Source: Tubiluchus corallicola (taxonomy: Eukaryota > Animalia > Priapulida). From it: DNA of 64,000 bases. Shown here in pieces: positions 19,293 through 64,000 of this stretch. The stretch lies in NCBI GenBank assembly GCA_030141605.1, contig JAQGDQ010000187.1, forward strand, positions 1 to 64,000. Reading direction: 5' to 3'. Both the position numbers and the translations under genes were made by a program. Within the stretch, counting starts at the first letter, position 1, and every line of letters begins with the position of its first letter. A model generated the notes under the pieces. It was not told the origin of the DNA and searched no databases. It saw only the letters and a program-made list of their open reading frames with translations.

Positions 19293-35758
<16,466 letters not shown>

Positions 35759-38576: not shown

Positions 38577-41000
38577 GTGAATTGAATTGAATACTCAGCA
38601 GCACCGAAGGTGTACTACATTTTTGTGAATAATTAAATAAGCTTATTCCATCATGCATCAGTGGGGCGTGGTTTTATAATCCAACATCCTTGTTATAGAC
38701 ATATTCCAATTAGCACGACTATTAAATTTCAATGGATGATGTTGATAGTGTGCATCTAATTTCGCCTTAAAATCAGATGTTGCTATTCTCACATCACAGG
38801 GCAATCTGTTCCCTGAAGGAAGACCTTCAGCATCGGTCTTAAAATCATTGGTTTCTAAACAAAACAAGATTATCAAACTTATAACATTTACTAGCAAAAG
38901 GGAACATGTAACACCTTTGTATTTGCAACTAAATCTACTAAAAGTTCATGATCTGTATAAATTAGAATTGCTCAAGTTTGTACATAAATTCAAAAATAAT
39001 TCACTTCCAGATCTCTTCAGCAATTATTATACTTTAGCATGTCACATGCATCACCACTCTACTAGGTTTGCTACAACCCAATCTTATTTTATTGAAAGAT
39101 TCAACACATCTAAAGGCCAGAATTCTTTAAAACACCAAGGATCTTTGCTGTGGAATTCATTACCAGACCAGTTAAAGTCCAGTAACTACAAAAAGTTAAT
39201 TTTAAACTATAAAAAACAACTTATTGCAGGATACAAATAAATGAGACATTTTGCTTATATACTTGTAATACTATACATATTTTTTTCATTGCTACGACAC
39301 TTAAAGATTTTGTTTAAGTTTTTGTTATATTTTGATTTCATTTTGTCTGATTTACAGTTGAAGTAGTTTTTCGATGGTTTAATTTATTATATTTTCTTTC
39401 TCAACAAATTCAGTCATTGATGTTATTATTACAACATTTCAGTTTTGTTTTTCTTATTTGCTTCTGTTTCTTGTTTTGTTTTGTATGATTTATATTTGCC
39501 TTATTTTTCCTTGGTTTAATCTATTATATTTTTTCTCGACAGCTTTGGTTGATCATTTTACTGTTTTTTGTTTTTGCCGGATTTTTTAGTTAATGCTCAA
39601 ATTATGCATATTCTGTTATCTTAAAAATCTCAAGTTATTTTTATTGTGTTTGCTTCGCATGATTCATAGTATTTTAGAATTGTAAATCTTTCGTTATTTA
39701 AACTATATGTTCTACAGTATTACGATACCTATCATTCAATTGCCAAATTAACACACATCAACTGAATACAAATTTAAATTGATAACGACGCCATAATTAA
39801 GTTTATTTAATCATAACTATTTAAGGGTGGCTGACTTGATAACCTACGGGTTCTTCGCTGCCCTTCCCTTGCTTCAAAATATTCCATGTATTCTTTATAC
39901 TGTATTTTTATCGTTCTAACGGAGATAATAAATAATTGAATTGAATTGAATTGAATTGTTCCCGATCTCTGGCAGCATACAGAAACATTTGTATTTACCA
40001 GTTACGTAATTTAAACCTATTCGTTTTAATTAATTTTCATATGGGAAGTTCATTAGGTCCGGTAACATGTTCAATGCTCTCATTTGAACAGCTTTGACTG
40101 GGTCCACTATATACATGCTCTAGGACTATTCCAAATGCTACTTCCATACTCCACTTTTGCTGTACAAGTGCCACATACAGAAGTTTGTAAGTTTGCAGAT
40201 CTAGATACTTGAAATTTCTCCTTATTAATACATTGTTTCATTTGGTACTCTTTATAATTTCAGCTGTGTGATCTCTAAAAGGTAAAATTTAGTTTATTAT
40301 CTAGTAATAATCCAAGGTTTTTCTCACAAGCACTAAAGTCCAGTTCTGCCGGAACAGCACTTGCATCTCACAATTTGTATTTATACTCATATCCTACTCC
40401 CACAGAATGAACCTTACACTTGTTGGGATGGAACTGCATACCACTTGCAACTGCCTAAATGTAGAGCCTTTCTAGATCCACAAACAAACACAGAGTTAAT
40501 ACCAAACGTTGTGGCACTCCACTAGTAATCAAGGACACAGTCGGCTTATAGCCATCAAGTCATGTGTGTGATCTTCTGTTTTCTAAGCAGTTAACTATCC
40601 ACTGTAAAGCTGAATGGGCCATGCCATAATTTTCAAGTTTCGTAAACAAAATAATGATGAGATATAAGATCAAATGCCTTTTCAGGTCCAATACTATATC
40701 AAAAGCTTGTTAGCATCTTTTAACTCGAACCATGTATCACAACATTGTAATAGTTGGGTAACCATTGTTTTACCCTTAACAAACCATGCTGTTCTTCACA
40801 GATAATGTTGTACCTTATAAGATGGTTCATGATATGCTTCCTTGTGATTTTTTCTGCCATCTTATCAATTGCATTTAATAGATGAACTATAGCTTGATGG
40901 ATCTGACTTATCCCCTTTGTTATGAATGGAAATAACCTGTCCCACATTCCACTGTCCAGGTAACTGACAATCAACAAAAGACCTATCCATTAAGGCGTAT
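38577..41000 (-). mobile_element. CR1-clade LINE relic, interrupted by a second LINE
   Basis: Minus-strand RT motifs HIMNHLIRYNIICEEQHG, KAFD, LENYGMAHSALQWIVNCLENRR, SGVPQ, MQFHPNKCKV and EKNLGLLLDNKL (39960-40900). The C-terminal NRLPCDVRIATSDFKAKLDAHYQHHPLKFN resumes at 38850-38700, with a (TTCAA)n tail near 38577-38593. Confidence 0.8.
38852..39958 (+). mobile_element. 5'-truncated L2/Crack-type LINE (ORF2 C-terminus, 3'UTR, (TTGAA)n tail)
   Basis: Uninterrupted ORF 38848..39240 (REHVTPLYLQLNLLKVHDLYKL..HHHSTR..GSLLWNSLP), T-rich UTR, terminal stem-loop at 39824-39870, AATAAA, then (ttgaa)n. Confidence 0.85.
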
Positions 41001-41334: not shown

Positions 41335-42385
41335 GTGAGAATTTGGCAGGTACATCTCTACAGTATGGCTTCACGGACAAGCTCAGCACTGAGCTTTGCA
41401 TTTACACAATGAAGGATGTTATAAATTCATATCTGAATAAGCAAAATGAAGCAATAAGTAAAGGATATCTCGAAGGCATTTGGCTTAGTGAACTATCACT
41501 AGCTATTCTTTAAATGACTACAAATTGCAGTTCCAAAAATTATTGTGCGTATGTTGTTCTTTTTTATTTAGAGCAGATGCTTACTATTAGATGTGGTCAA
41601 TTTAATGCCCAAGTCTTTAAAGTGGGGAACAACATTAAACAAGGTGGAATACTATCTCCTGTTCTTTTCAAAATTTATTTCAGGGAGTTTAGCATTGAAT
41701 TAAGTGAAATGCATAAAGGCTGTTGCATTGGTGAAAAATATGTTAATCAGTTGATGTATGCCAGTGATGTATGTCTTCTGGCAAAAACTATGAGTGCTTT
41801 ATTTTACAATATCTAGTTGATATATAAATATATACATATATATGCAGTATTCTATGCGGATCAAAACAAAATTAATCTCTGTTAAATCAACTATCATGTC
41901 ACAAGTAACATTTAACTCATTACATATAAAAAATTGCAAAATAAGCTCATGTTATCAAGAAAAATACTTAGGACATGTCATAACTTCAGGCAATAAAGAT
42001 GATTAAGGAAACATTCTCTGTTTTCCTGTAGAGCAAACAAACTGTTAAATACATTTAAAAACTGTAATGATAATGTAAACAGATATTTCGATAAACAGCT
42101 ACTGCAGCAACCATGCGGCTACATGGAGAAATTTTTATAATATCAAACCAAAGATAGTATACATTGTATTACTGCATTAATTTTTTGAAAAACCGTTCGA
42201 CTTTGGTCAAAGACAATTATGTGTATCCTGTAATCTCAAATACTTTGATTTTATTAGAAAGTGTGTGTTTAGCCTGTATATAAGGATAATAAACAGTAGT
42301 AATACCATTTTGAATCAGTTATGTAACAGTGATATTAGATGCATGTCTAGCATATGTGCCAAATGGCAATCAATCATATACATGA
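41335..42385 (+). mobile_element. Degenerate LINE reverse transcriptase (RTE-X-like)
   Basis: QYGFTDKLSTELCIYTMKDVINSY, FKVGNNIKQGGILSPVLFKIY, GCCIGEKYVNQLMYASDVCLLA (YADD changed to YASD), KYLGHVIT; stops and frameshifts. Confidence 0.8.
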
Positions 42386-43039: not shown

Positions 43040-46000
43040 ATGGCAAAGAAGGGAAAGGCAAAAAAGAAAGCAGCGAAGACTAAGAAAAAAGTTCAAAGCG
43101 ACGATGACGATGAATATTTGTGAGTATAATTATTATGCACCTTTGTCAATGACTTAAAATCTAAATTTTAGATTATAGGGTTTTCTGAAACTTTGCTATG
43201 TGTGTTTTTATGCCTAAACGGTGATGTATTTTATGCCTAAATTCTAATACTGATAATAATTTGATTATTCTACTTTTATTAAAGATTTTAAGCCAAACAT
43301 GTAGTAAAAGCAGTATATCAAGTAGTAGGCATTATTTGTGCTAAAAGTCTTTAAATATCTTTAATGATTTTTTTAAATACTTTAATACTTCAAATATTAC
43401 CAACACCAAAATAGCTCAAGCTCCTCTCCATTGACTTAGGGATCTAGCCAAAGCAGCATTTTGCCAATAAATTAGCAAGCATTTTCTTGTCACTAAGTAA
43501 GAGCAATATGCAGCTGGTGATAGCACTTAACAAGCCTGATTGAATGGTTATGTTACTTACACCATGTGAATGTCAGTAGGTGACAACAGTTTCAAATCTT
43601 TTGAGCATTATATAGGATAATCATTCATTTAGAATCTGATTGTATGTTATTAATCAATATTTGTATGTTATAATGACATTTTATGCAAATCTGAACCTGC
43701 AGCTGTGTTTATTGCTGCAATGAAATGGCTTGTAGTGATACAATGCCAAAAATTTTCCTTCTTTTTCTAATTGGTAAAGCTTGAAGATTTAGGTTTAGTC
43801 TGGGTTTACCTATACAAAACTATGCTTTAGTTATAGCATGTATATCTATTTTTACTTTTAGTCAGCAGAGCAGCTATAGTCGATTTGATGATGAAATCGC
43901 ACAGATGACTAGCAATAATATATTTGGGGAGGAGAATGAAGTGCAAGAGGAGCTGAAACAATCACTGCTGAAAGAGTTAAATCAATCCATTAGTAATAAA
44001 CCACCATCACCTATTGTACAGCAGAAATCAAAGAAAATGCAGCCAGTAGTAATACAACAAAAAGTGGTGGCTGCTGGTAAGATACAGATGATGAGGCAAA
44101 GACAGTTTTCATAATTGCATGTAGCTCTGTTATCATATGTGTTATTTAATGAGCAGGTGCATATGTACACTGCATGTAGTTGCCATCTTTAAAAACCAAA
44201 ATGCCAGAAAAAATAGCTGGAAAATAATCCTAGAAAAAGTGGTCTCGGGTGATTGACCATCCATCACCGCGTTTTTTGTATTTTAAGATTCTTTGACTAG
44301 ACTGTAACACGATATCCATATTTATTATATGTCTTTATGTATATTTTTAATAGTGTACCTATATTGTTGTGCATAAGCATGTTAACTCATTAAGAAAGCA
44401 AATTGTTTTTAAAACATTTTAATTTGGAAATGTTTTTGCACTGAAAAAGAGCTCTCATCAGTTTATTGGTATTAAATCTACACAGAGTTGTAACTACTTT
44501 CATGTATTTTTTTAGATATAAAGTTGACAAGTAAAGAGCTATTTATAGCCTTTAATAATTTTAAAAGAATGCCTTTAGAGAAAACACAGGTAAGTTTACT
44601 TGCACCAAAGAAAAATTGGTACTGGATCAATTTATTTTGAAGAGTGTAGGATTTAGTTTATTACAATCAAGACTTGTTCTGGTAAATTTTAATAGTCCTA
44701 TAACGATTATTGTAGATATTGTTGTATCTGCATATTGCTTATTAGCACATCAAGGCTTGACTATAGTCAAAATTTAAATCATGTTTGGGTAAAATTATGT
44801 TTACATATGTGCCTGTCAATGTATAAGAAGCATGGGAATCAGATATCTTGCTGTTTGTGACATACCGTTCTAAGAGTCATTCGTCTAAGTAGTAACCTAA
44901 CATGAATTTTATTCACTGTTTTAGAGTGTTATAAAGACCAAAGTTGACTATAACAACTTAGTCGATCTGGATCTTAGTGGCGTTCAGCAGTTAACCAACC
45001 TTTTCTTCTTAATACTTGGTCGTAGCGGAGCATCCGGTGTAAAACAGCTTGCCCGTGTTAATTGTACAGGCTGTGTTCATTTAACAGATATATGTATGAA
45101 ATGGTTATCATCATTTGCAAAATTAGAAGAGGCAAGTTAATGATTATTATATTTATCGATGAATTTTGTGCACACTACATTCACTGCAGTTAGTTTTTAG
45201 AAGCGATGAGGCGTGGCTTCTCTTATATACATTTAAAAAGTTTATTCTGCTCATATTGAATTGTACATCTATTTTTAACAATATTTGACATTTGTGTATC
45301 TTCTTAATATGTTGTTTTTTTCCATATGTGCACATGCACACCCATAAATAAAAGCTGTTCATTTCATTTTGATTTCATGCCATACCACTTTTACATAAAA
45401 TATAGGATATAGTTTTATTATTGCTAAACATAAATAAAATATCAGCTTTTTTAATAGTCTAACGTATCTTGTTTCAGCATAGGTCTGCAATGATATGTCG
45501 AGGCATCATAATATTTTTTGTTACAATACATGTATCCTCAAAGCACACTAGTATTGCGATAACCTGAGTCATTGATATATAGGACATGCTTGACTGTCCG
45601 CTGATAAAAACGGTGTGAAATAATTCTAGCTGCAGTTTAGAGTGTACTGTAGCTATGTAACAATCAGTGCAGTGGCAGCTGCGTAGCATTAGCAGGCCAC
45701 ACAGACAGACCTGCTGCTAGCAACCAAAGTGGTTGAAAGTGCAATGTATTTATAATAATTTATAGTAGGTCAATTACGTTTTTTTATTCTGAAGTGGAAA
45801 GCAACACATGTGAACTAGAAAATGCACTAACATATTTTAAATTAAAAGTTTGAAATGCTTTGCTTTTCTAATGACTTACAATATGATTAGTAAACAAAAA
45901 TCAAAAGTTTGCTGAATTAATTTAGCATTTGGCAATATTAACTTTTCTTCATAGATAAATGTAATCTACTTAGCTTTTATTATACATGTATATATATATA

Positions 46001-49000
46001 TATATATATGTACATGTAAAATAAAAGCTAAGTAGATTAGATATACATATACAATATACAATATATATATATATACATACAATATACATATAGAATATAC
46101 ATATATATATATATATATATATACATGCATGTATGTCAACAGCTTACTCTAGTTTTTTTCTAAAGCATGCAAACATATACATATACAATATATATATACG
46201 TACAATATACATATAGAATATACACATATATATATATATATACATATATGTATGTCAACAGCTTACTCTAGTTTTTTTCTAAAGCATGCAAACATCGTGA
46301 CAGTCCTACCATAGCATCATAAAGTTTTTGCTACCCTTAACTTCAAAAACTTACGGCTAGATTCTAAAGCCTTGTGGAATATGGCCTGACGTGTGAAAAA
46401 CCATTGCTTGTAGTGTAGGTATCACCTTTACCGTCTAGTGGTAATAGTGCATCAGATCCATTCAGAATTGCTTCAATATTATCTAAACAAAGTGAATTGT
46501 GTTGATTAGATTAATAATGTTAGTTGTAATTTTTAAAAATTACTAGGCCTCTTGGTGTTCTCATTGTCTTGAGTAAAACTCCAATCTCCAGTTTGATTGA
46601 AGATTGAATGTTCGTTTTCAATAACCAGCTTTTAATAAATTGTAATGTGCCTTGAATGGTGATGATGAAATAAGTCTTTTAATGTAATTATTGATGGCTG
46701 AGCTACTGCTTCTTTATTGTTTAGGTAATATTTGATGGCTGCAATCAGTTGAGTGAAAGAAGTTTAGTGTCATTGTTCGAGTCATGTGAACAGCTAGAAA
46801 AAATATCGATGGCGGGGACATCTGTTAGCTTTGTTCCAGAACCAAAGAATTTATATGTTCATCTTAATCTAACTGGCTGTCCTCTCATTACACCACCTGC
46901 TAATTACATAGCTAATAAGCCATTGGGAAAGTATTATAAAGGTAAAACAAAATTTCAGTTTTAAATTAACTCTAATCTTAATGAATATTGATTTAGTAAG
47001 TTGTTATTGTAAACAGTCAGTGTGTATATTTAATCACTTGTGCTTTCTACATTACAAGATTGCAAGAGAGTAAACTGCATTTGAGAAATATTAATGTTTC
47101 TGACAACAGAAGGGTAATTATGGGGTTTATGATAACAACACAATTAGAGGTTACTGGTTACCTTTTTCAGCCAAGGTCAGCTTGCATCAACCTAACCTGT
47201 TTAAAAATGAATTTAGTAGTTAGTTTCTAAATTTTTACCAGGCACAGAACATAGGGACAAAGTTTATATGTATAAAGTGATCATAATTGGCAGTACTCCT
47301 TCATCACATAATTATATCGATGCTATTGTGAATGGAAAAAGATCTACCATGTCCACCAAGCCTGTCTTCATCCACAAAGGCTGGAAACCTAAACAGGGCG
47401 CTAACTCTTACAACATTTTCCAGTGCACTTGGGTAAGTACAATAACATGTTGTCAGAATTGTTAAAGTCGTTTCCTAATAATCCTATACTAATAAACAGT
47501 TTGTCTAGTAACTAATTATGTAAGTAGAATATTTCTAGTATAAGTTTTCTATGTTGATTTTCTGTCATTATTGCATGTCATATAAAACGTTACCATATGT
47601 GTGAATGTGGTACCACCCTGAATTGCTTTAATCTGTGAAACAGCTGTGCTCTAGTAGGTATAACTTCTGTTGTAATCTCTTTCTTGATTGCTTTTCTCTT
47701 AAATGTGCAAGTGCATACTTTTTAATGTTATAAAAATTTATTAATAAATATTCAGGACATTTCTAATATTTTGATTGAACTAATTTGATTGAATACTTTT
47801 ATTTCAGAACAAAGTCCATATTATCATGCAATACAAATCATAAATAACAATCAAACATTAACAAGTCATATGGATTTATTTCATACAGATAATTAAAATT
47901 ACTAATTTTTTCAGTAACACACAAAAATTACAGCGAAGAACTGAGAGAATAAACCCCAGTACCCTTTACTGGTGTAGCTCAGGACTCTGTAACTTTGCCA
48001 TTTTTAACATTGCAAAAAACAAGGTTTTTTGAGATTTAAGAAAGATCCAGTGCTTTTTGTGTCCATTTCCATAGTTAAGGAATGCTAATTGTAGGCTTAT
48101 GTACTTAAAAAAGTTGTATTTATTTCAGAAAAAGCCAAATGTTACATTTAATATACAGTGTTGTTTTACTTGTAGGAACTTGTGCCACTATTCATTAGCA
48201 ATAGAAGCATTGTTGTGCTAATAGCAGATGAAAGTGAATCTGGTCAAAACAACAATGCGAACATTGCTATTAAGATAGCTTCAATACTCAGCCAGGTAAT
48301 GACTACCATTAATAATTCTAAGTTCATTGGCTACAGTAATCATTCAAGACTGGTTTAATCTGCATTTCTGTTTGTTTGCAGTTTTTCGGGAAAAACTGAA
48401 AAAATGAACAGGTAGATAGATAGCAAGAAAAAGTAATAGTCTGATGTAGTATAAATTGTCATTGTAGCATAACATTCTGATTTTTATAAGAATCGACTAG
48501 CATATTTTTATATATGACGCCCTACTGAATGCCAATGGTTATTGCTGGACTATGTAAAATTTTTCAGTGATTGTTCAATGTCTCTGGTTTTCAATTTAAC
48601 TTATTATTATTAATTTTATTAATTAATAATTATTAATTTTACAATAGGTTAGCAAATTAGCTAATGGGAATAGTCATGCAATGACAGTGTTTGTAAATGA
48701 TGGTAAACAACATTGGATCTGATTAGCAAATGGATGACTGCCCTTTTAAAAAATTGCTTCTGCATGATTTTATTTATTCCGACTATTTGTTTTGCTGAGG
48801 GAGGGTATATAGACACATCCACTGTGGATAAGACTTTTCTGCGTGTTAAGTATTTCAGTATTAAAGCATCAGTTGTGATAAATGGCCAGATTCTGGTTCT
48901 GTCACAACCATGAACATAATTTTGACGGTTATCCAGCCCATTGTCTTGTGCTAGATACTGGTCTGGAATGTGCTGAATGTATAGAAAAATCTTTGAAATT

Positions 49001-52000
49001 TTTTATTTTGTCAAAGAGATATAGAGCTTATTGAGAAATGCTTTTTTTCAGTTTCCAAATGTAGTATTTATCTTATCTGGTGTTCAAGTTGATGCAATAG
49101 AGAAGATGTTGCAACAGCTGCGCAACAACTGTAATGTGGATGAAAATACCGCAATGAAGTGTGTAATCATCTGTGTTATCAACTTATTTTTTAATACCAT
49201 GTCTTCGTGGTACCAAATAATCAGATTGATTATTAGTTTTATTAATATCGTTTTAATCACAAAGTGGCATTGACAACAGTAAAAGAATGTGTAGTGTGTA
49301 TATGTGTTCTAATACTATAAGGATATCTCTGTAAAAACTCGATAATACCAGTCTTGTTGGTTTGATTTTTAGTCATGTGTCGTAATCTCTTATTATGTAT
49401 GACCTTAAAATTGTAGAATTATATTGCGGGGTGTTACTGCTGCTAATCTACGGTTTTGTGTCAAGTAATGAAAATGATTGTGATTTATTTTCTACACATT
49501 TTATTTGTAATAAAGCTTTTAAGGTGGAAATTAGCATTTATGTGTAGATAAATGTAGAAAAGACATTGAATTTCTAAAAGTAATAACTTATCAAAATTTT
49601 TATGAACAAATGCTTATTGTGCACTGCTGAGAGAATTTATTTTTTCAGTAATTTGGAAAGACTAAGTTTCACGGACCAGATTCAAATGGGAAGGCTTGTT
49701 CATTTCACAACAAAAGTGTTGCACAAAAGCTTCTTTTCAAGTCGCCTTGTTGCATCTGGAATAGATTCATTTGAGGTAAATAACATTGTCACCTGCAACT
49801 TGTTCAAAAATACCACTCGTGTTTTTATTCAGCATAAAAAACATTTTATGAAATTTTATATTTCCTATACAGTGCTTCTTGTTATACAAATCTAATGCTT
49901 TTTTGTGTCATTTTTTTGTCACTGTAAAATAATTGTGACGTGTTTGTTTTTTACAAAAAAGTGTCTGATGAGTTAATTTGCTTATTTTCTATGGCTTAGT
50001 TAATTAAAATATATTAACATGTGTTGGAAGTTGGAAGTGTGTGGTAATATTTGTTTATTTTATTTAGAGTGGAGCAGATGTACAGAAAGTTTTTGAGGAA
50101 GCAGCTACTAAACTGTCAACCATTTGTCCAGAATTTGTTGCTTTAGACAAGGATTTTATGAAGGTAGCTACACAAAAATTACCTGGTAATCAGGTACTGA
50201 CTGTAGCAAGTCTAGATGAAGCTCTTGGGAAACCATTCTTATCGAGACCATTGACTTTTCAGAAAGCTATAGAGGCCATGCAAAATATGGTAATAATTCT
50301 TTATAAATATAAGTACCTTACATTAATATTTGTGACTTTCTAGGTGAAGGATTAAAAACATTTCTATGCTGTGTAAAGCAGAAGTTTTTTGCATTTTTAA
50401 TTTTTAAGAATGAACTCACTTTTAAAGTAATTACTTCTTGCTACATGTAAAGTGAATATCAACTTTTTCCTTTGTAATTGCATTTGCACATTTATAAGAT
50501 TTTGTCCAACTTAAATATAGACATTTTTGTGAACACCATGTTGTATGTGAATTTTTGTTTGTTTAGGGTGTGCTAATGTACATTCCATCACTCACTCAAA
50601 AAGTAGTTATAACTGACTTGAAATGGGCAGAAAAGACATTTAACAGTTTGTTCACCAAACCTGACAAACTCCATAAGCAAAGTATTTCTTTCATAGTGCC
50701 GGAAACACCAGTTTACACGAAAGATGAAATGAGACAGTTATTAAAAGATACTGAGTCAGAAGAAAAAGTAATTTTCATTTTTTTTAATATTTTGTGATGA
50801 ACTGGTAGTAATGAGCTGATTTCTAATGAAATAGATTAGTTGAAAAGTTTTTGAGTTGTAAGATTGATTGTGAAATATTATTCATTTTGAAACCTTTTTT
50901 TATTCAAGTATAAGAAACAGGCAAGTAAACTGTTAAACATCATGAATTATATTTTATAAAGCGAGACTTTTAGACTGTTCAGTTACCTTTGTGCAATAGT
51001 TTAAGTTTGCCTGCAGTTAGAGGCCACATTTTCATACATATGTAAAATACACCCAGTTATACTTCTCTAATAGGAAAAAAATCTTGGCTCTTGTTAGAAG
51101 CATTTTGGTTTTTAATAGATCAGATTTAATACTCATTATTTACATTTACATTTCAGCTTGATATGCTACTAGAGGCACTTCAAGAATTTGGTCTTATTAT
51201 TAGGATACCTCCTGAAACCTCACCATCAAAGTCTTTGTATATTATGTCATCTCACTTGCTTGCTGATGTTCCTGTAGCATTGGTAAGTTCTATTATAGCA
51301 AAGTTTTGTCAGATGTCTGACAGCGCAAATCATTTGGTTGGTGACTGCACTAAGGTGATCACCCTGTGAAAGTGACTTTGTTTGACATTCTCGGGTTTGC
51401 AGGTTGGGGAATTGTACCAGGTAGAGCTTGTAGGTGAATTGCTTCAGACTTGCAGTGGTTCAGCAATGCGGCGCACCTAGTTAGCAACTTATAAAATTTT
51501 CATACTTTGTAGTCTGGAAATGATGCAAAAAAACTGAAAAATTTTTAGAGTTCTGTATTGATGGTTAACTTTTTTATGTATGATACAATAAAAAATGACT
51601 ATATTCAATTGCAATTTAGTGATAAGACATGTTAATATGATAATATGAGAGTTTAATACTACAAATAAACAAAAATTTTATGCTTTGGAACTATATTTTG
51701 AGATTTCGATGGGAGCTTTCAACTCCACAATTTTTTGGGGGGGGGGTAGAATGTAACTATACATTTTATGGCAATGCATGTGTAATCAGAATCACTCTGA
51801 ATCATCAGCTTTTTTGCAAAATTTGATGAACAACGGCTGACTGAGCTAAATATATAGAAAATATACAAATATTGTTGAAGAAATCAAACAAGTTTAATAT
51901 CAAATGCATTTTATAAACGTACTTAAAAAACTAAAAAAATCATACCTAATAATTTTAATTGTGCTGGGAAGTTAACTAGGCAAACATTTATTTAGATTTA

Positions 52001-55000
52001 GCTGATTTTCCTGCATTTGAATTGTTTTTAGTTTGGAAAAAACGAGTTCAGTTGCAAAATGTTTCCTGACAATGTCCAAGCACATTTGGCTTCATGCCGG
52101 CAGGCCTAATTTCCTGATTCATCTGGGGCAAATCCCAACACATAATTATTACATTTAATTTAGAGACAAAAACAACTCAACAAATTGAATCAAACTAAAC
52201 CTGTGTTTGCACTGGGAACCAGAAAATCACTTCCTTGTCATTTTGATTAGGCAAATATTAATTTCCTCTTCATAATAGAATAACTGCTTCGGTAGTTTCT
52301 TTCCATAGTTTATTGTTGCTAGTATAATTAATGCTAATGTGCTGTTCTAAACTGTATTAGATGCCATGTAGATTTCCAAGAAATTTTACATACTTTGCAT
52401 GTAATTGGCTAATTGTATGGCTAATTTAATACTTGTAAATAATCTAACAGCAGAAAGTAAATAATTGTCACACACTTAGCAGAATTTATATCTGCAGACA
52501 TAATGTAATCATCTGAAACAACAAACAATTGTAAATACTGTGTTTTCATATTTTTGTAGAAACACTACTGGACGCCTAAGACACAAATGTATGATCAAGA
52601 AATGGGATACGCATTTTCCTTTTACTATCAGCAGAGTGTAGGATTAATACCAATACTGCTGAATGAGCTAGCAAACACCTGTAGCTTGGCAGTACTTTGG
52701 AATGCAGGCTTTATTTTGCAGCAGCGTGGAATGGAAGCACTGATTCAACTTAGCAGTCAGAATTCAGCTAAAGGTAAGTTGTCCTGGGTCTTTGTTAAAA
52801 CACTCTGAGCAACATTACATTTAACTTTAAGTTACTTCTTTGTATTCCTCTTTGAAGACTACAATGTGAAATTGTTATTACGACAAAGTATCGCTATCTA
52901 CGTCTCGAGGCCTTCACAAATTTATGTAATATGTTTTTTGCCTTATAGTTCAGTTATCACTACTATCTTCCTTGTTTGTAAAATTAAGACTTAATTTTTA
53001 CCTTGGTTAATCTGTAGTTAATTAATTGTTGAATACATGCAGCACCTGCTAAACTGGAACTGTTCGTTCGAGCAATGCGTCCACCAGATGACATGGACAC
53101 TGTTATGGTTGAAACTGGTCCAAAGCAATGCATGGAATTTATGTTAGGCCTGTGCTCATTAATAACTCAGTACTTGTGTAATAGAGCCGGTATTGGGTAT
53201 CAGGTATTCAAGTGTGGCCTAGAAATTATTTTTTGCTTGAAGTGGACCGTTTAATATTTTCAGCACAGGAACTGTTTAATGTCACTGATGAATTTTTTGT
53301 GTATTTTTATGTAACTTGCAGTTAGAGTATGTGATTCCTTATCTACAGTATGTAGAATATGCACATTGTTTTACTGAAAAATCACCAGGTTTGTGTGCTG
53401 TGTTTTAGCACTTACAGACTGCTGTTTATATGAGAATTTTGGCACTTTTTTCATTCGCTTTCAAGGTAGCAAATGCTCCTAGTGATGCAAACTTTGCCAA
53501 TGTTTAGATTGAAGGTATTTACTCTGAAGATCAGTGCCCGAAGACGAAAGCAGCTCATGTGGTAAAGATGTGGGAGACACCTTTAGATATGATGGAAGGC
53601 AAAAAGTGCTCAAACTGCCAAGCTACAATTAAGCGAGAGCTATTACTTTTGCATGGTATGTGAAGAGTATGCAATTCAGGATTTTAAATTTGAATCTTTG
53701 CACTTACAACTGTATTTAAGGGAAAGATAATATAAATTTGCCGAGGCAAGCTGTACAATACCAGTATGCACATGCAATTGGACAGATATGAAATGATAGA
53801 TCATGTTATTAATTCTCTGTGTTTGCAACTGTCGGAAGAAAAAAACGAATGCAAATTGTACAATATTTACTAAACAAATAAGGTGGACATGAAAAATGTA
53901 AATAATAATTTTTTGTGTTAGTTAGAATAATTGCTATGATTGGCTAAACTATTGCTTAGTGTAAGAAATGTGTAGCAACTTATGGAATTGTGGTATTTAT
54001 ATTAATTACTTGTCACTTCTTTTTTCTTTCAGAACTGCTTCCAATGAAGCACGTTAATCGTATTCAGTCTGGAACATGTACACTGTGTGCACGAAGATAC
54101 AGAAAAGAACCATCTTGCAACACTTGCGCCTTATGCTCAGTTTGTCAGGATTTCATTTTGGTTAGAATTTTTTTAACCTAACTGCTACTCATAAAGTATG
54201 GATTACTTAATTAGTTGTAATTTTAATTTCATGAAAATAAATATTAATTCAATAAAGGCATAATTGTGAAATTTTTGAAACCAAATTTGATCAAAAGCAT
54301 AGAATGTGTAACAGTCAGGTAGAGCTTGAATTTAAAATACGAATCTTTGATTAGGTGTATTTTTTGTATGTAGGTTTGAATTTGCAAGTTTCACATCAAG
54401 AGTGTTTCACTCTAACAAGAATTTTTTATGAAATTTTACTCTTGTTTCATTCTGAAAATGAGTTTAGAAGGCTCTCTTTTATCTTCTATTTTACCAAGGT
54501 TTTTCCCAGTTTAGAGCAAGCATGGCAATGGGTGAACTAATAATTGTTGTACAATGACAAATGTTTGGATATTTCTAAAACCCAAGTATGCAGATCACTC
54601 ATCATATAGGAAAAATATTATAAATTTTAGTAATAGTTTATTATTTTAATCATTGATATCCAAGTTATCATAAGAAGACAGTAAGGGTATTGTTTGCATT
54701 TGTAACTTCTTTGATGCCTCTTTTGGTTGTTGTTTTTTCAAAAATGACCTACTAACAAATTACTGTAGATTATATACTACATTATATACTGTAGATTATT
54801 TAAGTACTACTTCTTATATTCCAACTTTGGCCCATATTAAGGATAAAAAAGTTTCAATAGTATTTTATTTTTAAGAAGTATTTACGTTATAAATGTGTGA
54901 TTATAATTATGAAGTTGTTTATAATAATTTGCCTTCATGATTTGGCATTTTCAGACCAGATGTATAGCTGTTTCCCCATCATTTTTTCCCTCTTACTTGC

Positions 55001-58000
55001 TGACACATTCAACTGATGAGCAGATGCAGGAAGCAGTAAAACAGGCAGGCAGTTATGTGACTGTAACACCTTTGAATGAAGACATTGTAACTCTTCATTA
55101 TGAGCTGAAAGTTGGAGATTCATTTTTTATAAGCTTTTTGAAAGGGCCCTTTCCTGTAATTGAGGTTGCAATTGCGTAAGTTTTTCATCGTATAAAGTTT
55201 TCTGTATTTTCTTTGCGCATAATTTTATGAAGTAGTTTAATTTTATGCTTATTTTTTTCACAGTTAGCATATTTTTGTGAGTACCATTCCTCTTACACAT
55301 CATGAAGAATGAGATGGTATTTTTGATACAGAAACATTTTTTTATTTAGCCAACTTCTGCTGGTCAGCTATAATTTCGAAGATGGTAAGATTGTACAGAA
55401 GCAGCTTGACTACCCGAATGAGGAAAGTAATGAGGAAGAAATGATTACGGAAACAGATAATACAATAGAAAAGGACACATTCATAAATGGCTGCTGCTTG
55501 CTTTGGAAGATCACACACAAAGTAACATACTGTAAAATTCCTTCAATCAGTTGTCTTTTCAAATGATTAGTATATTAACTTTGACTGAACGATTTATTTT
55601 GTAAATTTGTATGTGTGGTTAATACATATATTTGTACAGTCAAATTAGAGTTGGAAGGACAGGTGCATTGTTAATATTTAGGCATAAAAATCTCTTTTTA
55701 TAGTTGACACAATTTGTACTCTGAGACATTGTCACCAAGTGAAAGCTTTCAGTGCAAATTTACATTTTTTATGTAATACCTAAGAGTAAAGGAGTTGCTT
55801 ATTCATTTTTATTCACGTTTGTTTCAGCTTGTCGATATGGAATCATCTGAGTCGTTGGAAATGAGCAAGCGTTCTGAGTCAACGACCATTGCTTCGGCTG
55901 AATCAAGAGGAAGAGATACAGGGAAGAAATCTCTCCAAGCTTTTTTTGAACTAATGGTAGATGATAATTTGATTTATTCAGTTTCTCTCCCAAAGCTTGA
56001 TGATGGAATGCTGGTTACAGATGCATCAATGAAGTTTTCATTCTCAGCTGATAGTGAGATGGTAGTTGGCTCTTTAGGCTTTCAGGTGTGGCTTTGTTTA
56101 TTTTAAAAGATAAATATATGTTTAATGCTGCCGTGAATATTAAGAATAACTTTTATAATTAAACAATTTGCATAATTTTTCTAAGAAATGAAATAAAATA
56201 TCAGTAAAAACTAACTGCAGAAGTACCACCATCTCACAAGCTTTTTAAGAAAATATTTATTAATTCCGATTCGGAAAGCTTCATTTTTCTGGAATTTCAC
56301 CAGAAAATTGATGGAAGCTGAAACTGTGGAAATCATCATTTCCCAGAAACAACAAATTCTGCATAGCTCAGAAGCAAGACTTTTTTAGCCTAGAACAATT
56401 TTTATTTAGACTATTAAACAGACTATTAGACTATTAGGTCAAACAGTACCTTAACTTGCTGCAGTATATGTGTTAGTCAACCAGACCGTGTGTTTACTGA
56501 TGTTACCGTTACCGCAAGTTTTAATTGATGTTTGTTAGGCTACATGTCAGTTGTTTAGAAAAGCATGGTGAGTTACAAACATATTTTCACTTTGCTAATA
56601 GAGCTGGTCACAACATTGATCATTTAAAATTCTGTATTGTATAGGCAACTCAAAACCGAATTACTGGATTTCAAGAAGGCATGAAATTAGAAGCATTAGA
56701 TAGGAAAAACCCAAGCCTTATTTGTGTTGCTTCTGTTAAGAAGGTGTTCAGCAACGGCAATGTGGAAATCTACTTTGATGGCTGGTCAGAATCGTAAGTT
56801 GTTCAATTAAGTTTTTTGATAGCATATAAGAATATTCGAGTTAACTATATTTGCTTTTAGTGTTTAGTGATAATTCTCAGTATGTGATACAATATTAGAG
56901 GTTTTTGGCTAACATTAGCAGTTTTGCACACCATTGGTAGTAACAGACTGTAAGTGATGCATTATCCTAGAGCATTACATTTTTGTGTAACGTACCCTGT
57001 CATGTGCTATTTCTGGGAAGCAGTAAAAAAGAACTGTACTTTTTATAGTGTTTTTATCACTCAACAATGTTTTCTTTCTTGGTTTAAAGTTTGTTGCCTG
57101 TCATAAGCCTGCTGTTTGATTATATGCCAAACTGTCAGTATTGCATGCGTTTAACTACCGAACATGCAATTGCTAGGTTATTTGTTTTCCTTGGAAATGG
57201 CCACAGATAACACAGCAAGCTTTAAACTTTAAACTTACTAATTGCTTCTGCAGATTTTAAAAATATTCTAATTTTGTCAAAAATTACAATTGTGCAAAGC
57301 CTGCATGGCTGCTTTTGCAGCCTAATTAATGTGTGTGCTAAAACCAAAACAAAAATAATTTTTCAAAAAATATTTTTGCTATGTTTTTGTTTTTACAAAA
57401 TGCAGAAAAGTTACATTTCAACAAATGATTTTTTTTACAGTTTCTGAACGCTCAACTTTTTCAAACAAGCTCATATCATGACCACTCAACTATATCTTAC
57501 CCTCAACAACGAATTTGTTGAAAAAAATTGCCAATTCAGTTTTGATTGTATTATTAAATGAGCTGAAAATGCCAGTAGGGTCTAACTGTATTATAGTCAC
57601 TATTGCGTAAAAAGATAGAGAACACCTCTCCTTCCCCACTCCTTCCTTGACTAACGTGGTAGACTATTTGGTGACAATAAGAAGAACAGAATAAAATGAA
57701 ACTGAAAAACTACATAAAATTTGTCAAAGAAAAGTACGAGATAAACATACTAAACGTGTTTGGATATTAATCACGTTGAGCATCTATCGTGGTGGAGAGG
57801 TTAAGAGGTGATATGTATACTATATTTGTGGCTTAGTTTGATAGTTATTCTCTTAAACTATCTATGTTTACAACTTGGAGCTGAATGTTTATTTCTCTTG
57901 GTATGATCTAGCATTAAATGTTTGTTTCTGTCGGTATGTTCCATATAAGAATACCTCTGGGAAATCATTAATTTTTAAAGATTTATGCTGGTTTTATCTG

Positions 58001-61000
58001 AAGGACATGTAAAGCCAAATTGTGATTAAATATTCTTTATCTGAATAAAATGTAGGTGATACAATAAAATAATGCAAGTAAATGTCCAAAACGTGATATG
58101 CAGGAAAACCTTAAATAAAGCTTACCTCATCTCATGCAAAAACAGAAAGACAGAAAACACATACAGTAATCAAATTACTTAGACATTATCATAAAAAATC
58201 AAATAAATTAGTGGAAATTTTTTCCAGATACAAGTTGAAATTTGTTAAAACGCGTTGTAAAAAATATTGTTTTAAATTCCAGTGTGTATGATAACTTAGC
58301 GTATGTATAAGGTAGATTCAGCCACGACAGTTCCGACGTAGCAATGTATAGCAATGCGATATGCTTCATTTTTTGTGTAGGTTTTACCGATTGTTTATAT
58401 GACCTTCTAATCTGCTTTTATTAGATTTTTTAATTAAACTCTGCAATCTAATCTCTGTACGGTAGAGTTTACAACTATAACCAGTTTACTGTACATTATG
58501 TTTAATCCAACATACTGATTTTCTTTATTAGGATTTGTAATCTGCATGTTAGGCTCAAATGGTAATTGTATCTAGAAAGTAACTGGTTGCTGACTTGACA
58601 GTTTCTTTTTTTATTTTCAGATTCAGTTACGTTTGTGAGTCCACTGATAAAGATCTTCATCCTGTTGGATATTGTAACCATGTAAATCATAACCTGAGTG
58701 CACCTAAAGGTATGGCTTAGTTTAATTTTGTTTATTATATCATTTTACAACAATGTCTAACAACACAGGTCAAGTTCATCACTGCATCAAAGATCAAGTT
58801 CTCATACGTATCAATAAAATTGTTAAAGATTACATTTAAGTTAAAATTAAATGACGTATTGTAACTTAAGATTTGTCAGTCTGCTTAGAGTGTTTTTGAA
58901 GTGCAGACATTAATAGCTTTTCATGTACTAAGAGGCTGTGGTCATTCTTGAAAGCACAAGTCATTTGTTTTTAATATGTCTATTCTTTGCAGAAAAAGAG
59001 TGAGAAATTAAATATTGTGCATATTTGTAGAAAATGCACTAGGATGAAATGGTTACAAATTATTTGGTGACTGTTGTGACACACTACTTAAATAATTAAA
59101 TGTAGTGTTAAACATTTAAATGTTTTAAACAGGTTTATATTGTGGTAACAGTTTTAATTTAATTTCAAGAAATTTTTCAAGCCACTTAAAAATTTGCAGA
59201 AATTTTTTTGTTTAACTACGCATTTCATGAGGTGCATTTTTAAGATTATTCTAAATTGTTGATTTTTTAGGTGACACTGATTCCAATTTTTCTTGGCCTG
59301 ACTACTTGGAAGAAACTGGTTCAGTTCCTGTACCTTATGAGTTGTTTACAAATCCGGTATGAACATTGCTTGGCATGCGATAGGATACAATGTCTGTGTT
59401 ATTGATACTTCTTCAGTACAGCTTACATTTAGACTTTTATCATTTTACTGAGTTAGTGCTGATATTGTATGTGCAAGAATTTGATATCCTGACAGTTGTC
59501 TACAACTTATTTTTCCTTCATTTCAGGAACAACTTGACAATTCTCCACCAGACCCAGTTTATAAAAGATTTAATTTTTCTATTACAACGTGCACCTTTGA
59601 TGCCACTGTAAACCCACTAGGTATGCTGTGAATATATTTTTGTGGTGTTTTATCTTATATTAGTGTGTTACATTATAGCCAATAAAGAGCTACCAGCTCA
59701 TGTTATACATGTAAAAGATCACCTTTAAATATAATTTTATGTTATCTTATCTTCTCTTATCTTACAGTATTTGTCATTTGACTAAAGGTAAAATAAGTCA
59801 ATGTTTGCGACTGCAATATTTGTTTAATGAGAACTTTCATTTTTGTCGATTTGATGTTTTTATTTTATTTGAATGTGCAGACAAAATAAACGTTTCAGTA
59901 CTCATTTTGAGTATTAGAGATAGTAAACTGTTGCAATAATTTCAGTAAGGTATTTTCTGATATAAGTGCAGAAAACAAAACTCGTATTTTTCAGTACTAG
60001 CATGTAGTGTGAGGAAAAGCGCTGCGGTGCTGGCAAAGGTGTTCTATGGCTTAGATTCGGATAGCTACTTGTTCTCTCTGCTCCCTCTTGATTTGGATTC
60101 AACCATACTGCAATATCCATGCAGACGAGCTGTACATGATCTCAGCAGACAAATGATTTACTTTCTTTGTGCTCACAGGGGTATGAGAGCTGTTGAAACA
60201 ATTCTGACTGTTATTTTAATAATATTATCACTTCAATTATTTAGGAAGGTGAATGCCGATACAACAGTGTGTAGTAATTTTTACTGCTGCGCACATTGTT
60301 GTTGCCATCTTAAATTTCAAAATGACCACCTGCCATAAAATTATATAATGTATTAATTACCTTTGCAAGTTAGTTGTTTGTAAGACTAATTTGTCAGGCA
60401 GCTTGCAGACTGATGTCAGCAAAGTTCAGTTCAGTAGAAGAAATTGGATAAACCCATTCCTGCAGCCAAAAAAAATGAAGAAAATCATAAATAAGTGGCT
60501 TGTCAGTAGAATTATGCTTTTTAACATAAGACTGAGGTGCACATAATTCATTCTTAGGAAATGCTTATAATTTGAATTTTGTGATACATTCTTTCATTTA
60601 ATTTTTCAATTTTCCTATTTGCAAACCCTTGAAAACTGCTATATCCTATGACTGCATCCACGTTTTTAGATCATTGAGTACAATAGAGCACACTAGAACA
60701 TAGTACAACAACCAAAAATATGAATAGGGATTATGGTGAACCCATTAATTAAAAGGCATATAAAATGATATAAAATGCAAGCAGAATTTTAAAATAATCT
60801 GGCATGCATGGGATTTGTTGACTTGAAAGATAGCCACCTTATTTTGTGCCGTTTTGTGTGTTAACTTTGTTTTGCCTAAATTATAGTATCAAGAGTCTTA
60901 AGAACTAATAATCTTACTTCTATAGTATGCTTCTGTTTTTTTCCAATTTTGCTGAATACAATTAATAAAGATTAAATACATTTTATACAGTCTACAGGTC

Positions 61001-64000
61001 CTCAAAAATATAATTATTACAAAGAATTTTTGTCCAATCAACTGTAATATATAGTCAGTTTAGAGAGTGTTTTTATTTTTTAGATGCAGAGCATTTCATA
61101 GATTTGGCAGGTATTATGTATCAGCCAAGCAAGATTTCTTTCGATTCTTTGTTGTCTGATGTTTGGGTTTACTGTTGTTACGTGCTCTCTAAGAGAAAGG
61201 TATATGTTCATTCATGGTTTAGAAAGGAATAATAAATTTAATCATACTTGTTATAAATATAACTCAATAAGACAAACTCCATTTTGTGTCAACAGAAAAC
61301 ATTTGATTACTGGGATGTTGAAACAGTCGTTCTGTTGTATAACCACACTATGCCAAACATATTAAAGCAATTGAAAATATCCAAGAGCGAGCAACTAGAT
61401 TGATTGTCAAACTTAAGAATCTTAATCGACTTAAGAAACTGAAACTCCCAAGTCTGGCATTTTGGAGATATTTTTATTTTTGTTACCTGAAACACTGTTA
61501 TACTGGTACTTAAATTAAAAAAGCTACGTTCTATTTTCATCAAGATCGGTTTCACTCTTGAGGTGTAGTGTACACTCACGTCTCACTACTACAGCTCACT
61601 TAATTCGCAAGGGTTTCTCTGTCATTATCCAAGCTTGAGATATTTTTGCCATCTTGCTCTTCTTTTTACATTAGTCAGTGCCTAGAAAGTATGCCGCACA
61701 GGCTTTAATTGAAGTGCTTGCTAACTGACAACAATGTTTGGCTTTCACAGTTCAAGCTATATGCTACTGGCTATGATGCAATTTGCATTAGGGAACTGGT
61801 CAGGAGTTTAATTCTTGCACTCTTTTTTTCAGACAACCATTCCCGTCTTTGACAAGATTGTGAAAGATTCATCATCCGTGTCACTGGAGCAGGTCCTTAA
61901 ATTACAGTTTTTAGTTTTAACAAAATTTTAGTTGTTATGTTTACAGTAGCAGTTATGGTTGTGCACTTTTTGCTATCAGGTTCTTTTACCATGCAGTGAA
62001 AATCTTAGTCTTGACATCAATATTTAAAGTAAAAATAATCTGTTATTGTTTGCCTTATCAGCACTTTATAGTTGTTATGTTGTATCACTTTTGCTTGTGA
62101 TTTGTGTTAAACGTATGTAAGAGCAAAGATACCAAATAGAAATATGAATTACACTTTGCAAATACCTGTGCTACTAATAATTAGATTATTATAAATTAAT
62201 CAAGAATGCTACTTTGATATATTCTTATTTCTATTCTTCAGGTGTCGGCTGGAGTGCAGCGATTATTGTATATGTACCTTTATACAATCAGCATGTATTC
62301 TCCGTTTCTGAACATGTTTAGGCAAATTGAGGCACAAGGAGAAAACTACGAGCTTGTACTTCCTGCTAACTCGGGGGTAAAATGACCATCTTTATAAAAA
62401 TAACATCCATTTCATGGTTTAATTGCTGTTAGTTTATTAAATTGTAAATTATTTGCTGCATTAAAGTTGTTTTGTTTATTTTCTTTTATAGGAAGTTGTT
62501 GAACTTGCTAAAAGGACTGAAGGCCATTTGATTAAATTTGCTGCGAAGAACCAGATATCTCGTTACAGTTGTCCATTCCACGCTGACACTTATCGTCCCG
62601 AGGAACAACTAGAAACTATTGATGTAGCTCAGTATCTTCCATACGCGCCTTTAATTGTGAGGCTCAATTTCAGTCAAAACAACATTAAGGAACTCCCGGA
62701 ACACATTTTTCGGGATCTGTATGCACTCCAGTTTGTTGATTTCTCTAATAATAACCTAGAAACAATTCCAAGTGGTTTGCCCAATGCTAGGAATCTTGTT
62801 GCAATAAATATAGCTGGGAATAACATACAAGAATTACCAAAGGATTTCTCTGCAGCCCACTCCTTGAAATCTCTCGACATTTCCGATAATCCTTTTCACA
62901 ACATTCCCACTGAAATCTTTGCCCTGTCTGGACTGCAGGCTTTGATTGCCAAATCTCTTGTCCTTGATGTATTGCCTGATGATATAGGCAACTTACAGCA
63001 GCTGAAAACATTGGATTTATCTGAACATCAATTGAGCTTTTTGCCACAATCAATGGGCCACATGAGAGCCATGGTTCACTTTCATATCTGTGGATTAAAA
63101 TGGATAAAGCATCAAGGTTCAAATACTATTATAACAACTGAGTCATATCGGGAGTACGTTAATCACCACAGGGCCCTACGTGGCACTTATAAAAAAGTAA
63201 GTTTGTTTACCATAACATTTTATAACAACAAGTTATATTGTTTTATGTATTCTTTTTGATTTGTTTAACTGTTGTTTATTGTGAATATTATATCCCCCAA
63301 AAAGCTTTACTTTATTTCAAATTTAACAGCTGCAGCAAATCTTTTGTTATAGGGATTTGTCATACATTAATATTAAAATTTTTAATGGTACATTCAGAAT
63401 CAGAACTGATGGCGCCAAAAAACCTGTGTGAAAACTACTGTATTGAGTTAAAAGCATATCAGATGGTGGATGTGCACCAGTTATGGATACAAGATAGTTT
63501 AGCAAATATGGCTTTGTCATTAATGCTAGGCCATTACGTTTTTCAGCTGAAGCAATCTGGAGCAGGAAACCTCTTTGATTAGGCAGGGTTTTTTTGAGGC
63601 CTCCCAATGTATAAGTGCTTCTTGTTTTGGAATTTTTTACTGTACTATGTAAAGAACAGAAATTTAATACTATGTAAAGAGTATTAAAATAAACTTTTAT
63701 ACAAACATAAAATTTATTTATTTATTTTTGCAAGCCTCTTTTTACTAATTTTTTTACTCAAAAGTAAGGTGCTTATATTGGATGTAATGTTATAAGATTA
63801 TTAAAATAAACTTTTATACAAACATAAAATTTATTTATTTATTTTTGCAAGCCTCTTTTTACTAATTTTTTTACTCAAAAGTAGGGTGCTTATATTGGAT
63901 GTAATGTTATAAGATTTATTTCTCATCCAATGTAAGCATATCGGAAATGTCGAATTTGTTTAAGCTAATATTGAGCTTGTTCATGTTTTCAGGAGCTAGA
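43040..64000 (+). CDS. Large ROCO-like multidomain protein: Cys-LRR, degenerate Roc, COR, Cys-rich segment, MBT, LRR; 3'-incomplete, over 1600 aa
   Basis: 28 phase-consistent, stop-free exons (4809 nt): 43040-43119, 43862-44076, 44516-44589, 44925-45131 (GC donor), 46725-46941, 47242-47432, 48176-48295, 49052-49158, 49649-49775, 50068-50289, 50567-50767, 51157-51282, 52560-52773, 53043-53203, 53508-53655, 54033-54160, 54955-55175, 55350-55521, 55828-56085, 56645-56793, 58621-58709, 59271-59356, 59527-59620, 59995-60180, 61084-61199, 61833-61892, 62242-62376, 62492-63196. A 29th exon starts at 63993. Confidence 0.85.
44925..46941 (+). CDS. Cysteine-containing LRRs plus ROCO-type LRR cap/linker
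   Basis: LVDLDLSGVQQLT, LARVNCTGCVHLTD, LEEVIFDGCNQLSE, LEKISMAGTSV, LNLTGCPLITPPANYI. Confidence 0.8.
45962..46039. repeat. Near-perfect AT-rich palindrome around a (TA)n core
   Basis: Arms taatctacttagcttttatt / aataaaagctaagtagatta. Confidence 0.9.
46046..46295. repeat. About 120-bp tandem duplication with TA-rich microsatellite
   Basis: Two copies of ...gtatgtcaacagcttactctagtttttttctaaagcatgcaaacat. Confidence 0.85.
47242..53655 (+). CDS. Degenerate Roc followed by COR domain
   Basis: KVIIIGSTPSSHN (G1 position), LFISNRSIVVLIAD, FPNVVFILSGVQVD (G4 position). COR-like VVITDLKWAEKTFNSLF, LLEALQEFGLIIRI, LYIMSSHL, YAFSFYYQQSVGLIPILL, LWNAGFIL. Confidence 0.7.
56645..59356 (+). CDS. MBT (malignant brain tumour) repeat over three exons
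   Basis: GFQEGMKLEALDRKNPSLICVASVKKV..VEIYFDGWSESFSYVCESTDKDLHPVGYCNHVNHNLSAPKG..FSWPDYLEETGSVPVPYELF closely follows the MBT consensus. Confidence 0.92.
62492..63196 (+). CDS. Canonical 23-aa LRR array exon
   Basis: Repeated LxxLxLxxNxLxxLP units (LNFSQNNIKELP, VDFSNNNLETIP, INIAGNNIQELP, LDISDNPFHNIP, LDLSEHQLSFLP). Confidence 0.93.
63682..63916. repeat. About 117-bp tandem duplication in an intron
   Basis: Two near-identical copies of tattaaaataaacttttatacaaac...ggatgtaatgttataagatt. Confidence 0.92.

Follow-up and report, generated by a model that had tools for sequence, protein, structure and literature searches.

The window, by which we mean the whole stretch of 64,000 nucleotides of Tubiluchus corallicola DNA analysed here, contains on its + strand the beginning of a gene that, on balance, appears to specify the front ~1,600 residues of a giant invertebrate ROCO protein: a dead Roc-COR scaffold, a methyl-lysine-binding MBT domain, and LRRs leading to an active Roc-COR and a TIR domain. 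Judged from its domains, the protein would be a variation on an invertebrate ROCO-TIR type that is known but uncharacterised, set apart by the dead Roc-COR in front, and it likely belongs to the MBT-LRR-Roc-COR-TIR group. The features are collected in Table 1.

Table 1. Features of the window and exons of the ROCO-like gene with their predicted content
Feature	Position	Strand	Residues	Content
Ena/VASP-like gene	about 19650-29000	minus		WH1/EVH1 exons, proline-rich exon, VASP_tetra (tetramerisation) exon
Retroelement-like ORF fragment 1	38749-39240			Upstream of the ROCO-like gene; no Pfam match
Retroelement-like ORF fragment 2	41514-41816			Upstream of the ROCO-like gene; weak RVT_1, E 5.6e-5, below cut-off
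Exons 1-3	43040-43119, 43862-44076, 44516-44589	+	1-123	Lysine-rich start (1-17), then acidic patch
Exons 4-5	44925-45131 (GC donor), 46725-46941	+	124-264	Few Cys-containing F-box-LRR-type repeats, PLxxPP linker
Exons 6-9	47242-47432, 48176-48295, 49052-49158, 49649-49775	+	265-446	Predicted pseudo-Roc domain
Exons 10-12	50068-50289, 50567-50767, 51157-51282	+	447-629	Predicted Roc end and COR-A
Exons 13-15	52560-52773, 53043-53203, 53508-53655	+	630-803	Predicted COR-B and Cys/His-bearing COR end
Exon 16	54033-54160	+	804-846	Cys cluster C819, C822, C832, C835, C838, C841; C849 in exon 17
Exons 17-19	54955-55175, 55350-55521, 55828-56061	+	847-1055	Acidic/Ser-rich stretches; coding by codon usage
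Exons 20-22	56645-56793, 58621-58709, 59271-59356	+	1056-1163	One MBT unit, core and following arm
Exons 23-27	59527-59620, 60001-60180, 61084-61199, 61833-61892, 62242-62376	+	1164-1358	
Exon 28	62492-63196	+	1359-1593	Canonical 23-residue LRR array, about six repeats from residue 1413
Exon 29 start	63993-64000	+		AG acceptor in matching phase

General features of the window

With a GC content of ~33% and spliceosomal introns, the window is animal-type DNA. Upstream of the ROCO-like gene lie the Ena/VASP-like gene and the two retroelement-like fragments. The start of the window is marked by two inverted duplications at 1-2241 and 4153-6547 (1028 nt and 1217 nt), which are 100% complementary and hold exon-like sequence; they are likely an assembly artefact or a very recent rearrangement. 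Intron 4 of the ROCO-like gene carries AT-rich palindromic and tandem repeats (45951-46295), including a 50-nt hairpin without a loop, and intron 28 a 117-nt tandem duplication (63677-63910) whose copies are 98% identical.

Sequencing run X1 is DNA-like, with introns covered and splice joints absent. A single contig of this run, over exon 25 and its flanks (60893-61897), has a depth of 103 compared with about 1-27 in other bins, and terminates in adapter-like sequence. Three of the 20 SNPs in X1 are exonic and all three change a residue, numbers too few for a selection test.

Gene structure

From the ATG at 43040 to position 63196, the 28 exons of an independent, hand-built model join in frame to 1593 codons with zero stops. 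The original prediction had likewise described 28 consecutive stop-free exons, and the domain order that it gave is correct. Exon 29 opens in phase just before the window ends at position 64000, and the gene extends past that end.

The intron borders are GT-AG in 27 of 28 cases and GC-AG in the remaining one. The sole non-GT donor, GCAAGT at 45132 after exon 4, falls inside the first LRR array, and the halves of one LRR are cleanly joined across this intron, which begins after 45131. Exons have a GC content of 0.39 against 0.30 in introns (near-final coordinates), and in codon usage 26 of the 28 exons outscore 90% or more of the 246 stop-free stretches taken from introns, the exceptions being exons 3 and 16. 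In a leave-one-out splice-site test, joining at the top-scoring donor and acceptor preserved the reading frame for 22 of the 28 junctions (P 1.2e-6 against 1/3), a result that is partly dependent on our own gene model, from which both the matrices and the search regions derive. The chosen donors ranked first at 18 of 28 junctions, as did the chosen acceptors. Exons 16, 18, 19 and 26 have weak donors, and exons 6, 14 and 24 weak acceptors; for exon 24 the acceptor may instead be at 59995. This is a real gene, and it had been read correctly.

The joint of greatest importance is intron 16, since the ROCO half and the MBT half lie on either side of it. Its donor is weak (rank 3 of 12), and read-through from exon 16 ends at a stop codon (54179) that is followed by AATAAA at 54236 and 54251. 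Exons 1-16 could on these grounds be a separate gene or isoform, a free-standing ~850-aa protein of F-box-type LRR, pseudo-Roc, COR and Cys-cluster content that ends in intron 16, the MBT-LRR part then belonging to a distinct MBT-LRR-Roc-COR-TIR gene. A free-standing FBXL-type LRR-Roc-COR-TIR gene does exist in anemones (NG1, PMC5094078), and MBT is the first domain in the published MBT-ROCO lists. A stop with AATAAA is, however, an unspecific signal, since 8 of the 28 introns give the same on read-through. The exon 17 acceptor ranks first of 21 and matches in phase, and the intron is only 794 nt long, with a GC content of 0.263, 0.25 CpG per 100 nt and no CpG-rich promoter-like patch, whereas the CpG value ahead of exon 1 is 1.8 and that around the neighbouring gene's start is 5.0. 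The dead Roc-COR is, moreover, invisible to Pfam, which would explain its absence from the published lists. We consider a division into two genes or isoforms unlikely; the 28-exon chain probably belongs to one gene.

A loose end of run X1 behind 54297, with an initial A-run, was rejected as poly(A) evidence (2 records, agreement 0.63): other sequence comes after the A-run, and another contig crosses the site unbroken.

The first LRRs and the Roc-COR region

Exons 1-3 gave nothing above the Pfam cut-off. Exon 4 has weak generic LRR matches, and the PDB sequences matched by exon 5 at E<=10 are all F-box/LRR proteins (8/8), the best being FBXL2 with a weak E of 0.033. The array in exon 28 is recognised by Pfam as LRR_8 (E 6.2e-19). 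Two types of LRR, as originally proposed, are hence present: F-box/LRR-like in exon 5 and canonical in exon 28.

Zero Roc or COR matches were obtained when the 28 exons were scanned singly with Pfam, and exons 11 and 13 had no match among PDB sequences. For this reason a ROCO profile was built from 23 ROCO proteins (P0006, P0012, P0184-P0204). ESM Atlas matches of exon 10, with scores of <=0.83, were taken as noise.

Using hmmsearch, the profile matched residues 489-718 of the spliced model with 21.3 bits (E 4.5e-9), while the best of 500 shuffles reached 3.6 bits (a domain was reported in 265 of them) and the score for the reversed model was -3.4. With hhalign the match covered residues 239-722 (probability 88.7%, E 2.5e-6, score 55.0 over 407 columns), the controls scoring at most 23.6 in 40 shuffles and 16.9 when reversed. 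Linker, Roc, COR-A and COR-B are colinear and in order, and the PLxxPP linker, which precedes Roc domains, aligns with the start of the profile. The COR-A sub-profile scored 10.0 bits (E 3.6e-5), a value reached by none of 227 scoring shuffles; Roc, weak alone, scored 3.2 bits (none of 199 scoring shuffles), and the Roc part gave an E of 8.8e-4 and a probability of 23% in hhalign. COR-B alone was not significant, its score being reached by 16 of 205 scoring shuffles, and the COR-B region (exons 13-15) overlaps the whole-profile match. A Roc G-domain directly ahead of COR, which characterises ROCO proteins, is present as judged by sequence profile only. At this level residues 239-722 are demonstrably homologous to the LRR-linker/Roc/COR tandem, and the Roc-COR assignment of the original prediction is borne out by splicing and HMMER search.

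The nucleotide-binding motifs of the first Roc deserve further attention. The G1 position, within exon 6, reads GSTPSSHNY (residues 281-289; 47289-47315). GK[TS] is absent from residues 261-470 and Walker A from the whole spliced model (1595 aa). The DxxG of G3 (switch II) is also absent from residues 261-470, and it is not provided by any of the 16 micro-exon candidates of intron 6. At G4, GVQVD aligns with GTHxD, the Asp (D382) being retained and the remainder changed. G1 and G3 motifs occur in 23 of 23 profile members, the G1 count being circular because the profile domains were located by G1. Lacking both GK[TS] of the P-loop and DxxG, this unit is likely unable to bind GTP in the normal manner; the loss supports the earlier pseudo-GTPase reading, and the first Roc-COR is, to judge from its motifs, in all likelihood a pseudo-GTPase. 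A P-loop look-alike, GxxxxGKT at 46926, was considered as a rescue of G1 and rejected, as it exists only if the exon 5 donor is read through, and that frame reaches a stop 7 codons later.

The first Roc-COR could also be a decaying duplicate without a regulatory role, the MBT pocket then being a passenger. The branch of the model is very long (a quick tree, unfinished and giving no placement, puts it at 6.9 substitutions per column) and the sub-domain scores are weak. Against decay, however, ten exons have kept an intact frame, all domain segments are retained in order, and the listed indels of run X1 are all intronic (6/6; one DNA run and a small sample). We regard decay as improbable and favour a dead Roc-COR kept as a scaffold.

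Cysteine cluster and middle regions

The cysteine cluster of exons 16-17 is likely, by its sequence, a zinc-binding module. Exons 17-19 have no Pfam match, and neither residues 847-1055 nor residues 1164-1400 received a domain assignment. For exon 17 alone, the PDB sequence search gave 2 chance matches and ESM Atlas scores of <=0.83, i.e. noise; its AlphaFold model has a pLDDT of 46 and a best fold-search Z of 4.1, which is meaningless. Support for a Neuralized-like domain in exon 17 was not found. The PDB sequence search with exon 24 returned no matches. Within the window, none of the 28 exons scanned singly with Pfam matched a kinase family, such as would follow COR in the LRRK/Roco kinases, and no clear transmembrane helix is present, the top 19-residue hydropathy mean being 1.77.

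The MBT domain

Exons 20 and 21 both match Pfam MBT above the cut-off (E 2.9e-11 and 2.9e-7; positions 1-36 and 39-66), and exon 22 provides the arm that normally opens the next MBT repeat, giving the beta-core with arm of this family. Our own profile of 150 MBT repeats found a single match in the spliced model, with 136.7 bits. Tandem repeats (two to four) as in the Polycomb-type MBT proteins L3MBTL, SCM, SFMBT and MBTD1 were not found within the window, which contains one unit.

The pocket of dSfmbt, as given in the available text of PMC2693881, consists of D917, C925, F941, W944 and Y948, and Scm has F355 at the last site. Matched to dSfmbt by spacing, the pocket residues here are D1074, C1082, F1099, W1102 and F1106, so that the Asp, the three-aromatic cage and the small Cys gate are all present, with Phe at the last site like Scm F355. 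The same text reports that repeats which do not bind are blocked by a bulkier residue in place of the Cys, and that repeats 2 and 3 of dSfmbt make no contribution to binding although they keep the Asp; an intact pocket is for this reason insufficient for binding. Phe at the last cage site is linked, in the accessible part of PMC3229088, to a preference for monomethyl-lysine. The MBT claim of the original prediction is upheld by the Pfam matches, the profile score and the complete pocket, and we think it likely, from the pocket residues, that the domain binds Kme1/2.

The best PDB stretch is repeat 2 of L3MBTL1, and the closest PDB matches are all chromatin readers. Together with the lysine-rich first 17 residues, this would suit one protein acting on chromatin, in which the basic N-terminus serves for nuclear import, the MBT is a reader of histone Kme1/2 like those of L3MBTL and Scm, and the ROCO parts act as scaffolds. 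In the solved structures, however, chromatin MBT proteins have two or more tandem repeats each, as against the one unit found within the window. MBT units are also found dispersed in architectures not of the chromatin type, namely in a NACHT-WD40 protein (P0065) and a PHR/RCC1 protein (9 proteins scanned among the matches), for which reason the domain is regarded as mobile, and the published relatives terminate in TIR. A role in chromatin is on this evidence quite unlikely, and we prefer a signalling protein with a single methyl-lysine reader. P0065 itself is 2264 aa long and has several MBT units at dispersed places, a further NLR-like architecture with a captured MBT.

Proposed architecture and mechanism

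By analogy with B3S268 and LOC101848126, the architectures of which include them, an intact Roc-COR and a TIR should lie beyond the window, and we expect a Roc-COR-TIR there with fair assurance. That the gene instead ends after the second LRR array, or has another effector and no second Roc-COR, is very improbable: MBT followed by LRR_8 is the order of B3S268, which continues into Roc, COR and TIR_2. The output proposed in the original prediction missed the likely TIR, in which the published relatives end.

The most likely reading is that of a cytoplasmic signalling scaffold. Pseudokinases restrain a partner kinase, and restraint of the active Roc-COR by the dead unit may be modelled on such pairs. 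The dead Roc-COR would be a nucleotide-independent scaffold, serving as a constitutive dimer or an autoinhibitory surface; since COR domains dimerise ROCO proteins (PMC6337361, legend to Fig. 3), it would keep the dimer together or in a preset orientation and hold back the active unit. The single MBT would recognise a lysine that carries one or two methyl groups, and the second LRR array would cap the active Roc-COR, the GTP cycle of which would control the clustering of TIR. This clustering and the GTP cycle of the second Roc would both be gated by methyl-lysine bound to the MBT or by a ligand of the LRRs. The pathway served may be innate-immune or stress, and we incline, without great confidence, towards a signalling role of the immune type. 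Coupling to lysine methylation is what we infer. As a speculation, the lysine-rich N-terminus of the protein itself is a candidate ligand of the MBT, since dSfmbt, in the available text of PMC2693881, has low sequence selectivity and prefers basic flanks.

A more far-reaching proposal, offered tentatively and with doubt, is that the protein represents an overlooked ancient animal tandem-ROCO family in which a functional methyl-lysine reader is set between a pseudo-GTPase Roc-COR and an active one, an immune signal through GTPase and TIR being switched by lysine methylation. In such a family the reader's ligand could be the lysine-rich N-terminal tail, methylation of which locks an autoinhibited state. 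If such a family exists, it offers a pseudo-GTPase ROCO made by nature, in which Roc-COR serves as a scaffold apart from any GTP cycle, and an MBT at work outside chromatin complexes.

The mode of action of Roc-COR in LRRK2 and its relatives is debated, as the available part of PMC6337361 relates, between a switch like that of small GTPases and a nucleotide-regulated dimer. A unit with the sequence signature of Roc-COR minus its nucleotide motifs, likely beside an active copy, would permit a direct test of which functions require GTP. It is also a warning for surveys based on domain lists, in which such units are missed, as Pfam on single exons saw nothing of the dead Roc-COR. In a protein that probably signals through TIR, a lone MBT whose pocket is complete would, if true, tie lysine methylation to invertebrate innate immunity.

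Comparison with known systems

The literature and the databases were both screened for relatives. An MBT-LRR-Roc-COR-TIR protein is listed for Trichoplax adhaerens (B3S268_TRIAD; PMC5094078, Table S10). MBT is one of the domains that the legend to Fig. 1 of PMC4104024 names for Trichoplax Roc-COR proteins, and three Trichoplax ROCOs have a Ras-like domain N-terminal to ROC in the accessible text of that paper. For Aplysia californica, PMC9334734 gives LRR, ROC, COR, TIR and Mbt repeat in one predicted protein (LOC101848126), filed as a possible novel GTPase-linked signalling protein of the TLR type. The combination of MBT, Roc-COR and TIR being already in print (PMC4104024, PMC5094078, PMC9334734), its surprise is reduced. 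The original prediction knew of no characterised protein joining MBT to Roc-COR; the joining has been listed bioinformatically in these papers, and the architecture is in part that of an already described family, but the kind is uncharacterised. No description of a pseudo-GTPase or tandem Roc-COR, or of a dead Roc-COR ahead of an MBT, was found in the literature searched, subscription papers being mostly outside the search, and 'MBT domain' was absent among the matches listed for the general ROCO literature.

Among proteins of <=2000 aa, a search with exon 28 gave 33 generic LRR proteins and no orthologue, and one with the MBT exon 0/4 candidates. In a representative search, the best 150 of 559 matches all had at least two matched stretches and none resembled the model outside the MBT. 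A search with a lancelet Roc gave 22 ROCO proteins, none with MBT, and a metagenome scan for orthologues gave 5 loci at 25-35% identity.

Like B3S268, the T. corallicola protein has an MBT and then LRR_8, after which B3S268 goes on to Roc, COR and TIR_2; unlike it, compared by description only, it has an N-terminal FBXL-type LRR and a dead Roc-COR, which the B3S268 listing does not contain. With LOC101848126 it shares the combination of MBT, LRR and Roc-COR domains in one predicted protein. By description, the two differ in that the accessible part of PMC9334734 mentions no pseudo-GTPase unit, and in that TIR was not seen within this window.

A parallel to exons 4-15 is the actiniarian NG1 (Nematostella A7T2M0; PMC5094078), which has F-box/LRR-like repeats, Roc and a low-scoring COR. 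The GTPase of NG1 is recognised by Pfam (Miro/Ras) and precedes TIR_2, whereas here the GTPase motifs are gone and the Cys cluster, the MBT and the second LRR array come next.

The order LRR, PLxxPP linker, Roc, COR-A and COR-B is that of MFHAS1/MASL1, LRRK1/2 and the lancelet LRR-Roc-COR proteins (P0012, P0184, P0186, P0203, P0204), and P0012 and P0186 likewise have a helical insertion after G4. Unlike the present protein, MFHAS1/MASL1, LRRK1/2 and the lancelet ROCOs keep G1 and G3, and none of those fetched has MBT in its Pfam list.

In its pocket the MBT resembles repeat 2 of L3MBTL1, repeat 4 of dSfmbt and repeat 2 of Scm/SCML2, with which it shares the Asp, the Cys and three aromatics, and Scm in particular, which also has Phe at the last cage site. 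Those proteins have two to four interlocked repeats, whereas here one self-contained unit of core plus arm is set in a ROCO protein.
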